DNA from: Curvularia clavata
Lineage: Eukaryota
Assembly (NCBI GenBank): GCA_023920165.1
Contig: CP089278.1
Coordinates: forward strand, 2,356,001 to 2,420,000
Length of the DNA stretch: 64,000 nucleotides
Reading direction: 5' to 3'
Positions 45,108 through 48,311 of this stretch are shown here, in pieces; positions within the stretch are counted from its first letter, which is position 1; the number at the start of each line of letters is the position of its first letter. A model generated the notes under the pieces. It was given only the letters and a program-made list of their open reading frames with translations. It was not told where the DNA came from and did no database searches. The translations under genes were made by a program, and so were the position numbers.

Positions 45108-45470
45108 TCAATTCGGTGAGCCTTGCCTACACCTCGCCCCGCTTTTACCACAATCACTCGCAACCCCATAATCACAGCATCCGCCGCTCGAGCTACACTG
45201 GTATGCGTGGTTGCTCACACGCTTCGTTTTAATCGCGTATGTTCCTGCGCCTACAACGCAGTTGCCGCAGTAGACGCCGGCAGCGAGTCCGCTGACACAC
45301 GCGCATCCGTTGTAGCTACATGCTCTCTTGTCGAGCGTGAGGTCGTTGTCTCGAGTAGACAGGTGTAGTTTGTTGTTGAAGTGGCTGTTGCTGTCGCGCT
45401 CTTGGGGCGGTGAGGCAGAGACGTGGCAAGCGAAAGCTGCGAAAAGGAAGACGATGGAGTGAAAATGCAT
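45108..45470 (-). CDS. Small secreted cysteine-rich protein (signal peptide, pro-region ending LDKR, mature ~71 aa with 10 Cys)
   Basis: [23 protein letters not shown] Kex2 site; CSYNGCAC...YCGNC...YQC...CCDYG...C...C. Confidence 0.85.
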
Positions 45471-46231: not shown

Positions 46232-46719
46232 CCAAACAACCAAACTTACTATCCTGAATTCAAGTCATGTCTATTTCGCCGCTAGGAAGTTGTCTGTGCT
46301 ATTTCCCGCTCAATTTGGGGTAAAAAAAAAACATCTCTGAAACAGCTGAAACGTGGAGAAGAAAAAAAACTATCGTCAAAGAAGTTGAGATTCCGCTATA
46401 CACAAAAAAGAAGAGGACGAACATGCGCTGAGAATGTCCGATGTTTCGAGTGCCGTCTTAATGCTACAAAGAAACTCACGCAGCCTGTCGTTTCTTTGAG
46501 ACACTTTGATAGGCCAGTTGTGGAAAACAGAAAAGAAAAGACGAAGTAACGAATTTCACGATAAGTGCTTAGAGATACAGCCTCAGATATTTGTATCACA
46601 GTATGCACTGGTACACACTCTACCTAGGGGCACGTTAGACTGCAATCTTCAATTCTATTATTATGTTCACTCCCTAATATTAAACCATGACAAAAAAAGA
46701 AGAAGAGGTTAAAAAAAAA

Positions 46720-46991
46720 ATCAAGCAATCCTCCACTGCGAAATTGTTGCACCAGCAACCGTCCGGATTCGAGCGGCCGCCCTCCTGGCTTTAGCAACCC
46801 CATTTTGGACGACACTAGGTGGGCCACGGGTATTTCGTGTAAACCCGTTAGCAGCCTTGAATGTTATGATTGCTCTCGCTGGTAGTGTTGATCCTTATGG
46901 CCTCGACAGCAGTCTAGTGTTTTGGTAGACATACCCACCTAGTGTCGTGTGCTAGGAGCCCAGCCGACCACGAAGGAGAGGATTGCTTGAT
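46720..46991 (-). ncRNA. Unassigned structured Pol III-type non-coding RNA gene (~272 nt)
   Basis: 14-bp perfect terminal helix (46720-46733/46978-46991), nested 15-bp perfect helix (46809-46823/46934-46948), several internal hairpins, TATAATTA at -30, A-box-like and B-box-like motifs, T10 run immediately 3'. Confidence 0.72.
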
Positions 46992-47214
46992 GGGGAAGGA
47001 GGTAATATACGGGTAATTATACAAAAAGCGGTGAATTAGATTGTAGCAGGAAAAGTAGCCGATGTTCGCTGGGCTGCGAGGACCGTTTGTTTGTTACAAA
47101 TATGGAGATCTACTTGGTTACCGCGAAAAAAAATTGAACAAACAGAGAAATCCTAAACGCCTACCCACATTCCTTCGTAATCCTCGTGGCCTGATGCAAA
47201 AAGATACTCTGCGC

Positions 47215-48311
47215 TTACAAAAGCGTATCACCAAGCGCACACCTCACAATCGAAACGCCCGCACGCACTGTGTCGGCGGCACCCTCAGCATCGAGGCTGG
47301 GGTTCACTTCGACAAGGTCCAGCGCAATGAGGGAACCGGTCTCAGCTACGCACTCGGCGATGAAGTCGCCTTCTCTGAGGGTCAAGCCGCCACGGACAGG
47401 AGTACCTGTGCTGGGCGCCCACATGGGGTCCAGGGCGTCGACATCGAAGGAGAGATGGATGGGGGTGTCGCTTCCGATCCAGCCCAGGGCCATGTCCATG
47501 ACTTTGCCGATTCCGTGTCTATGGAAGTAAGCGTTAGCCCATTTTCTCCCAATTACCTTTGTTGGTGATGGAATTGCAGACTTACCGGTCAATATCGTGC
47601 ATGGAGAAAGCCTTGATACCATGGTCCCTCAGAATCTTCTTCTCGCCCTTGTCAATGTCCCTCAGGCCGATGTAGACCAGTTTCTTGGTACTGAGCATGT
47701 GCTCCTCCTTAATCCAGCCGAAGATGTCCTCACGATCCTCCTTGGCAAGGCCAGTTAGGAAGGAGACGGGCATGCCGTGGATGTTGCCGCTATCCGAAGT
47801 CTCAGGCGTGTTGATGTCAGCGTGCGCATCGACCCAGATGACGGCAATTTCCCTGCCCAGTCTTTCACGGACAGCCTTTGCGGTACCGGAAATAGTGCCA
47901 ATGGCGATGGAGTGGTCGCCGCCGAGGGTAAGGACGAGCTTGCCGTCTTTGGCGTGCTTGTACACTTGGTCGCTGACTTCGCGCGTGACGGCGCTGGCGA
48001 ACTTGGGGCGCTTCATGCCACGGTAGTCTGGGTCCTCGGATGGCTGGAGCTCAGCGTAGTTGTGCACTTGGCCGTCGTAGGTGACGTTGTATTCTAGGTC
48101 TTCTTCTAGCTGCTTGATGAGGCCGTTCTCAATGAGGGCCATGGGAGCCGCGTCGACACCGGCTTTGGGCTGAAAGTGACATGGTCAATGTGTGGAAGAG
48201 CATTACGAGAGCTGAGAATCTTACCTGGCCGCCGCTAAAGCCGACTGCGACGATACCCAGATCATGGCGGTTGGGCAGGAACTTGGGCTGTATTGTTGGT
48301 GGGGAAGTCAT
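47215..48311 (-). CDS. agaA: Arginase (introns 48170-48224, 47519-47585)
   Basis: GFSGGQPKAGVD, LGGDHSIAIG, WVDAHADINTP, SGNIHGMP, SFDVDALDP..APSTGTPVRGG, DLVEVNP. Confidence 0.97.

Follow-up and report, generated by a model that had tools for sequence, protein, structure and literature searches.

A candidate RNA polymerase III gene, located downstream of an arginase gene in Curvularia clavata, for a structured RNA of about 270 nt

Introduction

To our knowledge, the products of RNA polymerase III (Pol III) in fungi are usually taken as a closed set that comprises tRNAs, 5S rRNA, U6, SRP RNA, RNase P RNA and a few others in some fungi. A stretch of intergenic DNA downstream of an arginase gene of Curvularia clavata raises the question whether this set holds a further member, whether a known member is present here in strongly diverged form, or whether the locus is a mobile element or an inert palindrome. 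A preliminary description of the locus had proposed a previously unannotated gene for a structured RNA of about 270 nt on the minus strand, with a full Pol III signature.

The locus was analysed here as part of a window, i.e. the whole stretch of 64,000 nucleotides taken from contig CP089278.1 (assembly GCA_023920165.1). The reading that we favour, and that we place just on the probable side, is that of a conserved, low-copy gene for a small structured Pol III RNA that belongs to no described family and has a promoter layout like that of SNR6. The layout of the gene, the fold statistics, the pattern of conservation and the lack of an Rfam match on which it is based are supported by the sequence data.

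Results

Promoter and terminator layout

Read directly on the minus strand, TATAATTA occupies 47021-47014, the predicted start near 46991 is a purine, a body of 271 nt follows, and a run of ten T residues (T10) lies at 46720-46711 (Table 1). The predicted start, A 46991, is located 30 nt past the first T of the TATA element. The arginase stop codon occupies 47215-47217 on the same strand, so the predicted RNA starts about 223 nt downstream of this stop, in agreement with the approximately 220 nt given earlier. A query with the arginase exon confirmed the assignment of this neighbour to the arginase family. On the plus strand, the T10 run is one of only three runs of at least ten A residues in the 64 kb.

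The TATA element, the A-box-like element and the T10 run are all present where the preliminary description had placed them. The A-box-like TGGTCGGCTGG agrees with the consensus TRGCNNAGTGG, quoted here from general knowledge, at 8 of 11 positions, or at 9 of 11 when T is permitted at position 4, and is weak when taken alone. Two B-box-like elements had also been named. The letters of the first, GGATCAACAC, are found at 46894-46885, but they match a B-box poorly and this role is unsupported. The second, GCTCGAATCC, is present as well, although at 46774-46765, one base off the 46764-46773 originally assigned to it. Taken as CGCTCGAATCC, this element matches the consensus GGTTCGANTCC, likewise quoted from general knowledge, at 9 of 11 positions and lies mid-way in a nearly invariant module of 40 nt (46747-46786); with up to two mismatches the consensus occurs at 54 sites in the window, so the match alone is not significant. 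The confirmed Pol III gene of the window, a 5S rRNA gene, is preceded at about 30 nt by an A/T-rich element and followed at once by a T-run, and shows in these points the same local habits as the candidate.

Table 1. Features of the candidate RNA gene, in positions of the window
Feature	Positions	Strand	Remarks
TATA element TATAATTA	47014..47021	-	-30 to -23 from the predicted start; read directly
Predicted body of the RNA (271 nt and a few U from the terminator)	46721..46991	-	start at A 46991 predicted
Terminal stem, 5' arm	46977..46991	-	pairs with 46720-46734; 15 pairs, mean probability 0.96
A-box-like TGGTCGGCTGG	46960..46970	-	+22 to +32; read directly
Inner stem, 5' arm	46933..46948	-	16 bp with 46809-46824; mean pair probability 0.98
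First B-box-like GGATCAACAC	46885..46894	-	read directly
Inner stem, 3' arm	46809..46824	-	pairs with 46933-46948
Near-invariant 40-nt module	46747..46786	-	most conserved part of the unit; contig alignments
Hairpin of the conserved module, GCGGCCG/CGGUUGC	46780-46774 / 46761-46755	-	probability 0.86
B-box-like CGCTCGAATCC	46765..46775	-	+217 to +227; loop of the conserved hairpin
Second B-box-like GCTCGAATCC	46765..46774	-	read directly
Small hairpin UGC-N9-GCA	46737..46751	-	between module and 3' arm of the terminal stem; probability 0.72
Terminal stem, 3' arm	46720..46734	-	runs straight into the T-run
T10 run, Pol III-type terminator	46711..46720	-	read directly

Predicted fold

The minus strand of the unit folds with a minimum free energy of -109.4 kcal/mol, against -86.0 +/- 4.9 kcal/mol in 200 shuffled sequences (z -4.74), none of which is as stable. 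The perfect helices of 14 bp at the ends and 15 bp in the interior that had been described are borne out, each extended by one further pair: the terminal stem (46991-46977 / 46734-46720) consists of 14 Watson-Crick pairs and one U-G pair, and the inner stem (46948-46933 / 46824-46809) of 15 Watson-Crick pairs and one U-G pair. In the predicted fold, a multiloop sits on the inner stem, from which three hairpins branch off (46912-46930, 46871-46911 and 46826-46848). Among the smaller hairpins proposed before, GUCUA/UAGAC and ACGGGU/ACCCGU are well supported by the ensemble (pair probability 0.90 and 0.94, respectively), whereas UGCUG/CAGCG and GUUGC/GCAAC can pair but are out-competed (0.07 and 0.12), the ensemble preferring UGCU/AGCA with UCG/CGA over the former and GCGGCCG/CGGUUGC with UGC/GCA over the latter. 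Three stacked stems make up an imperfect rod of about 48 bp, which is closed at the 5'/3' end and bears an oligo-U 3' overhang.

The fold does not tell the strands apart. The preliminary description had taken G-U wobbles that work only on the minus strand as a strand marker, which fails: the plus strand reaches -112.4 kcal/mol (z -5.21) and has 8 G-U pairs of its own, versus 12 in the minus-strand fold. Because the plus strand folds equally well, an inference of the strand from folding was rejected and the strand is called from the TATA element and the T-run only. The structure derives from palindromes in the DNA and by itself indicates neither an RNA nor its strand. Perfect stems of 15-16 bp are a typical trait of young inverted repeats and unusual in a functional RNA of great age, which counts against an RNA gene.

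Searches for known families and further copies

A search of the whole window against Rfam at gathering score returned the 5S rRNA gene, located elsewhere in the window, as sole match. At E <= 10, no match was obtained on 46600-47100, and with lax filters on 46715-46995 (281 bases) only two chance-level matches of 10 bits to lncRNA models appeared; the models of SRP RNA, RNase P and MRP RNA (RNaseP_nuc, RNase_MRP) and snRNAs gave no match even at E <= 10. The covariance search that the preliminary description had proposed as a check thus assigns the candidate to no Rfam family. Its statement that the RNA is not a spliceosomal snRNA agrees with the lack of snRNA matches, and that on the missing tRNA cloverleaf with ARAGORN, which found no tRNA or tmRNA gene in the window. 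At the protein level, no Pfam family was detected at E <= 1 in four of the stop-to-stop ORFs of the region, nor at E <= 0.01 in an overlapping stop-to-stop ORF of 79 aa.

No second copy of the unit occurs within the 64-kb window. A 20-mer of the module was found at four loci in JGI metagenomes, all G+C-rich, unrelated and matched by chance, and none of the four is alike beyond the 20-mer itself. Searches with an 18-mer in viral contigs and with a 22-mer in prokaryote genome contigs returned no match. A local alignment of the module with helix IV/V of the 5S rRNA of the window scored 20 and was rejected, since this score is not significant against shuffled sequences (16.4 +/- 2.1, maximum 25). 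A full-text search of the literature for a 14-mer of the module, in DNA and in RNA form, returned no paper, and searches on Pol III ncRNAs in Pezizomycotina yielded no description of such an RNA. A study of 17 fungal RNAs makes no mention of Pol III in the part of its text at hand (PMC8216456), and none of the 15 motif names in the available part of another study fits the candidate (PMC5640933).

Conservation in public sequencing runs

Conservation was assessed in four public sequencing runs, all in the form of contigs; the mismatches and ends of diverged copies reported here are those listed for them. In run X4, the contigs other than the window-like one add depth only in the bins 46710-46996, which correspond to the predicted transcript, whereas both flanks of the unit keep the single-contig depth of 4.1. 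The 40-nt module is aligned at >= 80% in at least eight further contigs of X4 and at least two of run X17, besides the window-like contig; these further contigs have unlike flanks, with alignments that extend from 46744 or 46747 to 46786 or 46791. Within the module, A>T at 46751 is the one well-supported difference among those listed, with A replacing U in every listed contig that is not window-like.

Both borders of the predicted gene recur in the diverged copies. The T-run is reached at a fixed distance from the module in all five listed consensus sequences of diverged 3' loose ends (8 contigs). At the other border, a diverged 5' copy (X17, record 6) is aligned over 46949-47015, i.e. from +43 to -24, and the TATA-like ATATACATA is found directly upstream in the same place (loose end at 47015, reverse complement). 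The 3' arm of the terminal stem differs in sequence among the listed diverged copies, with a UUGAU-type end kept. In the small hairpin at 46737-46751, AGC-N7-GCU can form in three of the five listed loose-end consensus sequences and cannot in the other two; the change in this hairpin, the one candidate for covariation, is possibly two-sided, judged from one pair in sequences that are non-independent and ambiguously aligned.

As a control for copy number, arginase gave 5 diverged contigs at one listed position in X4, versus 8 contigs for the RNA module. Numbers this similar are compatible with about one or two copies in each fungus and not with a repeat of high copy number. The extra contigs could nevertheless be paralogs within one genome rather than orthologs.

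In total, 20 of the 24 listed public runs contain part of the stretch; none is on record as RNA, and the entries guessed to be RNA are assembly-sized. Run X19, from a library labelled transcriptomic and flagged as probably DNA, has a contig over about 46915-47119, which enters the unit from the intergenic side, past the predicted start. Since it crosses the promoter and the start, this contig is not the proposed transcript and counts neither for nor against its expression. No X19 contig covers the module, despite many arginase contigs, and this absence was given no evidential weight.

Discussion

Conservation that is confined to the predicted transcript, together with the kept T-run and TATA-like element, is in keeping with a Pol III ncRNA gene outside the described families. 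The proposal of a novel Pol III ncRNA is supported in part, by its gene-like layout, the lack of an Rfam match and the extent of the conservation; its strand argument, its first B-box and its likeness to SRP helix 8 are not supported. We infer that the locus is transcribed, that its transcription depends on Pol III and that the RNA has the ends given in Table 1.

The conserved borders also bear on the two explanations that need no RNA gene. It is unlikely, in our view, that the unit belongs to the dispersed repeats, be it as a non-autonomous foldback or MITE-like mobile element or as a repeat of another kind, with the extra contigs representing copies within the same genomes. Such an element would account for the perfect 14-bp terminal inverted repeat at the ends, the second perfect 15-bp inverted repeat inside and the equal folding of both strands, and the likeness between copies ends at the unit borders, as it does in mobile elements; the depths of the diverged X17 and X4 contigs (3.2-5.7) are close to those of the window-like ones (3.65-4.9) and would fit paralogs in one genome. 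However, a target-site duplication is absent, the flanks reading ...TTCCCC and TTTTTT... and the shared AT belonging to the palindrome, and the best conservation is found in the internal 40-nt block instead of the termini. The 3' T-run is kept in all five listed diverged copies and a TATA-like element, which lies beyond the inverted repeat, in one, whereas a transposon does not bring its flanks along. The lack of an A-rich tail in either orientation argues against a SINE, the 64 kb hold no second copy, and the 8 diverged contigs are close to the 5 of the single-gene arginase control in the same run. Only a slight chance is given to a structured element of the arginase 3'UTR or of a read-through mRNA, or to a non-functional intergenic palindrome. 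The unit does lie on the arginase strand about 223 nt past the stop, the X19 contig (about 46915-47119, library labelled transcriptomic) joins the intergenic region to the unit over the predicted start, and structured 3'UTR elements are known in Pezizomycotina (PMC8216456). A UTR element needs neither the T-run kept at the border (5 of 5 listed copies) nor the TATA-like element (1 of 1 listed), the likeness between copies ends at the unit borders, and X19 is flagged as probably DNA, so that its contig may not be RNA.

The other two explanations accept a Pol III RNA and assign it to a known class. We regard it as very unlikely that the Rfam models have missed a strongly diverged form of SRP RNA, RNase P RNA or RNase MRP RNA; none of these models matches the 281 bases at E <= 10 with lax filters. 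In SRP RNA, the apical tetraloop of helix 8 is named GNAR and the 3' side of its symmetric loop reads AGCA. The hairpin at 46903-46885 (AGG / CC-AUAA-GG / AUCA) is loosely like this symmetric loop, but its loop AUAA keeps only the A at the fourth position, its 3' side is AUCA rather than AGCA, and a bulge of 10 nt follows on the wrong strand; no GNAR loop occurs in the other hairpins of the predicted fold. The conserved features of helix 8, i.e. an apical tetraloop with A at the fourth position and a symmetric loop with an invariant A-C pair and a neighbouring G, thus contradict the likeness that had been suggested for this hairpin, whose AUAA loop, AUCA and bulge fail them (PMC4605306). The terminal (Alu) domain of SRP RNA displays the motif UGUNR in a loop (PMC4605306). 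In the candidate this motif occurs only as UGUCG at 46908-46904 and 46814-46810, both in mid-molecule stems and neither in a loop near the ends. In RNase P and MRP RNAs, the P4 pseudoknot pairs CR-I with CR-V and precedes the 3' strands of both P2 and P1; the module lies between the 3' strands of the second stem and the terminal stem, which differs, by eye, from the place of CR-V. A dikaryon-type SRP RNA, which is devoid of helices 3 and 4, would be compatible with the size of the candidate, its Pol III layout, its paired ends and its branched inner domain, and in basidiomycetes computational models missed altered SRP RNAs until these were purified (PMC4605306). The alterations of helix 8 are reported for Basidiomycota only, with none in Ascomycota (PMC4605306). 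The remaining explanation, that Pol III makes a precursor from which microRNA-like or other small RNAs arise, as for milR-1 of Neurospora crassa, is to our mind highly improbable too. The milR-1 locus yields an intergenic short hairpin transcript that is made by Pol III and then diced; pri-milR-1, about 170 nt long, is directly followed by a T stretch and requires TATA-like elements for Pol III recruitment, without A and B boxes (PMC3547838). The rod of three stacked stems in the candidate, imperfect and about 48 bp long, and its oligo-U 3' overhang would suit such a role. The longest unbroken stems are 15-16 bp, however, and a three-way junction with the module breaks the rod after 15 bp, so that the predicted fold would probably be a poor Dicer substrate; the best-conserved part is a short hairpin of 40 nt with a large loop and not a long duplex.

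If the candidate is indeed a Pol III gene, TFIIIB would be placed by the TATA element at -30, aided by the A-box-like element at +22 and the distant B-box-like element at +217. Pol III would initiate at A 46991 and end in the T10 run, resulting in an RNA of about 271-275 nt with an oligo-U end. The ends of this RNA would pair as the 15-bp stem, by which they would be protected and the U-tail offered to La-type proteins. A bulged second stem and the 16-bp third stem would stack on the terminal stem and bear the three variable hairpins, and the nearly invariant 40-nt hairpin module, flanked by the second stem and the terminal stem's 3' arm, would be the functional core. As DNA the module may serve as a TFIIIC site and as RNA as a platform that binds a protein partner, which would make the RNA the scaffold of a small RNP; protein partners and a cellular role are thus part of the proposal.

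More tentative, and in our judgement somewhat short of probable, is the wider reading that filamentous fungi possess a conserved family of Pol III RNAs of about 270 nt, of which the candidate is the first to be described; in this family the module would double as intragenic B-box for TFIIIC and as protein dock, and the family would form a new small RNP beside SRP, RNase P/MRP and U6. If true, a further conserved Pol III RNA would point to an RNP and a cellular function as yet unknown in a large group of fungi, plant-associated species among them. The compact promoter unit of TATA element, internal boxes and T-run could be used to express guide RNAs in filamentous fungi.

Comparison with known systems

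An RNA of the same size is Afu-202 of Aspergillus fumigatus, an intergenic RNA whose class is not known, with a cDNA of 266 nt and a northern band of 270 nt, reported as conserved in sequence and structure over its full length in four Aspergillus species (PMC2377427). It matches the candidate in size, the comparison being one of size and kind of location alone, and it sets a caveat to the term 'previously unannotated' (PMC2377427). Afu-202 may itself be SRP RNA, RNase P RNA or MRP RNA, as its paper, in the part available, discusses none of these, nor Pol III (PMC2377427). Later work on Afu-202 is not found among the 10 of 16 matches listed, which are unrelated DOI strings only.

With dikaryon-type SRP RNA, the candidate shares a similar length, the pairing of its 5' and 3' parts and a long stem that leads to a branched distal domain; unlike SRP RNA, it is devoid of the conserved helix 8 loops, a GNAR-type tetraloop, UGUNR in a terminal loop and a covariance match (PMC4605306). 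It resembles the milR-1 locus in being intergenic, short and hairpin-rich, with TATA-like elements and a T stretch right after, and differs from it in length (about 271 versus about 170 nt), in its branched fold and in the invariant 40-nt module that is conserved across diverged copies (PMC3547838). Fungal MITE and foldback elements, as generally known, are alike in their size (about 270 bp), in the perfect inverted repeats at their termini and in the equal folding of both strands. In contrast to these, the candidate has no target-site duplication and no second copy in the window, its internal block is better conserved than its termini, and the flanking TATA element and T-run are kept.

In the SNR6 gene of Saccharomyces cerevisiae, a TATA element sits near -30 and an A-box-like element follows about 20 nt inside the gene; the B-box is found more than 200 bp past the start, and a T-run serves as terminator. 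The B-box of SNR6 is located after the terminator, whereas the B-box-like element of the candidate, at +217, lies within the transcribed region, in the conserved hairpin. The candidate RNA itself bears no likeness to U6, with no match in Rfam; what it has in common with SNR6 is the gene architecture only, i.e. an upstream TATA element, an A-box-like element, a distant B-box or B-box-like element and a T-run.

Predicted gene signals and secondary structure

The TATA element, the A-box-like element, the first B-box-like motif and the T10 run proposed in the preliminary description are all present on the minus strand (table). The second B-box-like motif is present as well, one base away from where it had been placed. 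The B-box-like CGCTCGAATCC agrees with the B-box consensus at 9/11 positions; its weight lies only in its place in the nearly invariant block of about 40 nt described below (the module), because 54 sites in the window match equally well.

Features of the candidate RNA gene (the unit) and its surroundings
Feature	Position	Strand	Basis or value
TATA element TATAATTA	47021-47014	minus	direct reading
Predicted start A	46991	minus	30 nt past first T of TATAATTA
A-box-like TGGTCGGCTGG, +22	46970-46960	minus	direct reading
First B-box-like motif GGATCAACAC	46894-46885	minus	direct reading
Second B-box-like motif GCTCGAATCC	46774-46765	minus	direct reading
T10 run	46720-46711	minus	direct reading
Terminal stem, 15 bp (14 Watson-Crick, one U-G)	46991-46977 / 46734-46720	minus	mean pair probability 0.96
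Second stem, bulged	46975-46955 / 46801-46781	minus	predicted fold
Inner stem, 16 bp	46948-46933 / 46824-46809	minus	probability 0.98
X4 summed depth	46710-46750		12.8
X4 summed depth	46751-46791		36.5
X4 summed depth	46792-46873		about 8
X4 summed depth	46956-46996		12.1
X4 summed depth, flank	46546-46709		4.1
X4 summed depth, flank	46997-47037		4.1
Dispersed 5S rRNA gene	25004-24885	minus	Rfam RF00001, 76.9 bits, full length

The minus-strand stretch of 285 nt has a minimum free energy (MFE) of -109.4 kcal/mol, compared with -86.0 +/- 4.9 for 200 dinucleotide-preserving shuffles (z -4.74), none of which (0/200) was as stable. In the predicted fold, the inner stem bears a multiloop with three hairpins, and two further hairpins, GCGGCCG/CGGUUGC (probability 0.86) and the 3-bp UGC/GCA (0.72), lie between the 3' strands of the second and terminal stems. 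The hairpins UGCUG/CAGCG and GUUGC/GCAAC of the preliminary description can form, but they have low probability (0.07 and 0.12, respectively) in the ensemble. The argument that G-U pairs reveal the strand did not hold: the MFE of the plus strand is -112.4 kcal/mol (z -5.21), and its fold has 8 G-U pairs vs 12 on the minus strand. Folding therefore does not assign the strand, and the call is based on the TATA element and the T-run. A self-complementary octamer, GCGGCCGC (46773-46780, minus strand), lies in the 5' arm of the conserved hairpin; in the RNA, it could form an intermolecular duplex as an alternative to the intramolecular pairing.

Searches against known families

The Rfam covariance search suggested earlier matched no known family to the unit. 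At the gathering score, Rfam 15 found a single RNA in the whole window, the 5S rRNA gene; at E<=10 there was no match on 46600-47100, and on 46715-46995 only two 10-bit chance matches, both to lncRNA sequence models. ARAGORN found no tRNA in the window, Pfam no family in four ORFs of the unit region, and repeat search, blastn and nhmmer no second copy within the 64 kb. The supposed likeness to SRP helix 8 failed against the defining features described in PMC4605306: the candidate hairpin has the loop AUAA, not a GNAR-type loop, and a 10-nt bulge comes after AUCA on its 3' side. In the predicted fold, none of the terminal-domain loops contains a UGUNR motif.

Conservation in related copies

Contigs of four public sequencing runs were compared on 46300-47500 at >=80% likeness. 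In run X4, a mixture of related fungi, one contig is near-identical to the window over 46529-47070 (depth 4.1), and further contigs align solely inside the unit. Depth is raised in the tabulated bins of the unit and stays at 4.1 in the flanks (table), so likeness to the diverged copies ends at the predicted start and terminator. The strongest conserved block is the module, 46747-46786, which is matched by at least eight further X4 contigs and at least two contigs of run X17 whose flanks are unlike the window; A>T at 46751 is its only well-supported difference among those listed.

Among the listed contigs, five loose-end consensus sequences (unaligned continuations; eight contigs) reach beyond the module on its 3' side. 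Each of them begins on the plus strand with AAA or AAAAAA where the window has A10; therefore, these five diverged copies all end in a T-run, and the 3' arm before it is similar in length, differs in sequence and keeps a UUGAU-type end. At the other end, a diverged X17 contig (record 6) aligns from +43 to -24 with 13 mismatches in 67, and TATA-like ATATACATA lies directly upstream of the aligned part. The UGC/GCA hairpin starts at 46751, where A replaces U in all non-window contigs listed; GCU follows in 3/5 loose ends and AGC-N7-GCU can form, whereas the other two (second subtype) cannot form it. This change would be at best weak covariation, requiring a 2-nt loop indel and coming from three non-independent sequences.

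Two subtypes of the diverged copies at 46745-46791 (X4, X17) can be told apart from what follows the module: N3-5 GCU with the UUGAU-type end, and UGGAAAC/UGGAAUC with a different 3' arm. The subtypes may correspond to paralogous lineages or to separate species groups.

At 47443, X4 has five arginase contigs, all unlike the window. Eight module contigs against these five suggest one or two copies per genome and not a high-copy repeat, from contig counts at near-floor depth that leave room for the extra contigs being paralogs in one genome.

Genomic neighbourhood

Upstream on the same strand lies an arginase gene, two exons of which match Pfam PF00491 (E 4.6e-29 and 1.4e-39). With its stop codon at 47215-47217, the unit begins ~223 nt past the stop, in agreement with the ~220 nt estimated previously. 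A second A10 run (T10 on minus) lies at 46322-46331 (plus strand), ~390 nt downstream of the unit within an A/T-rich spacer; inspection by eye showed no structured unit ahead of it. A 120-aa ORF at 45108-45470 (minus strand) has a hydrophobic, signal-peptide-like N-terminus, is cysteine-rich and matches no Pfam family at E<=0.01; from its sequence, it looks like a small secreted protein of no assigned family.

Discussion

On balance, the unit is probably a conserved Pol III gene of low copy number whose product would be a structured RNA of ~271-275 nt with closed ends, belonging to no described family. The functional core of this RNA would probably be the invariant module, which in the DNA would serve as a TFIIIC site. 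Transcription would be by Pol III, the U-tail would be bound by a La-type protein, and the RNA may act as an RNP scaffold.

A foldback or MITE-like element would account for the perfect inverted repeats and the equal folding of both strands, but there is no target-site duplication, conservation is internal instead of terminal, and the flanking TATA element and T-run are conserved, which makes this reading unlikely. We give still less credence to a Pol III-made milRNA precursor resembling Neurospora milR-1, which PMC3547838 describes as ~170 nt long and TATA-dependent, with a T stretch directly after; the uninterrupted stems of the unit are short for such a precursor. Just as improbable is a diverged SRP or RNase P/MRP RNA: altered SRP RNAs have been overlooked in basidiomycetes (PMC4605306), yet the unit fails every feature tested. 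Least probable is an element of the arginase 3'UTR, or an inert palindrome. In run X19, a contig near-identical to the window (~46915-47119) covers the spacer between arginase and the unit, the TATA element and one third of the unit from its 5' end, and so crosses the predicted start; the library is labelled transcriptomic, but the run is flagged as probably DNA. If it is RNA, the contig would be an arginase read-through or an antisense transcript across the candidate promoter.

Topic searches of the literature on Pol III ncRNAs in Pezizomycotina yielded no description of an RNA of this kind, and a 14-mer of the module is absent from the searchable full text. The unit is not listed in the consulted passages of PMC8216456 or the outline of PMC5640933, both fungal structure screens. 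Among described RNAs, the closest lead is the A. fumigatus (Aspergillus fumigatus) RNA Afu-202, a 270-nt intergenic RNA on northern blots, whose sequence and structure are reported to be conserved across four Aspergillus species (PMC2377427); it agrees with the unit in size, the feature compared.

The 5S gene of the window has an A/T-rich element ~30 nt upstream, T5 directly after and T7 20 nt further; the upstream element and the immediate T-run are local habits that it has in common with the unit. Should the candidate prove genuine, the RNA family would be new and the architecture of the gene of a known kind. SNR6, the U6 gene of yeast, combines a TATA element, A- and B-like elements and a T-run. 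The layout of the unit (TATA at -30, A-like element at +22, B-like element at +217, then the T-run) is similar, with the difference that its B-like element is transcribed, whereas that of SNR6 is not.
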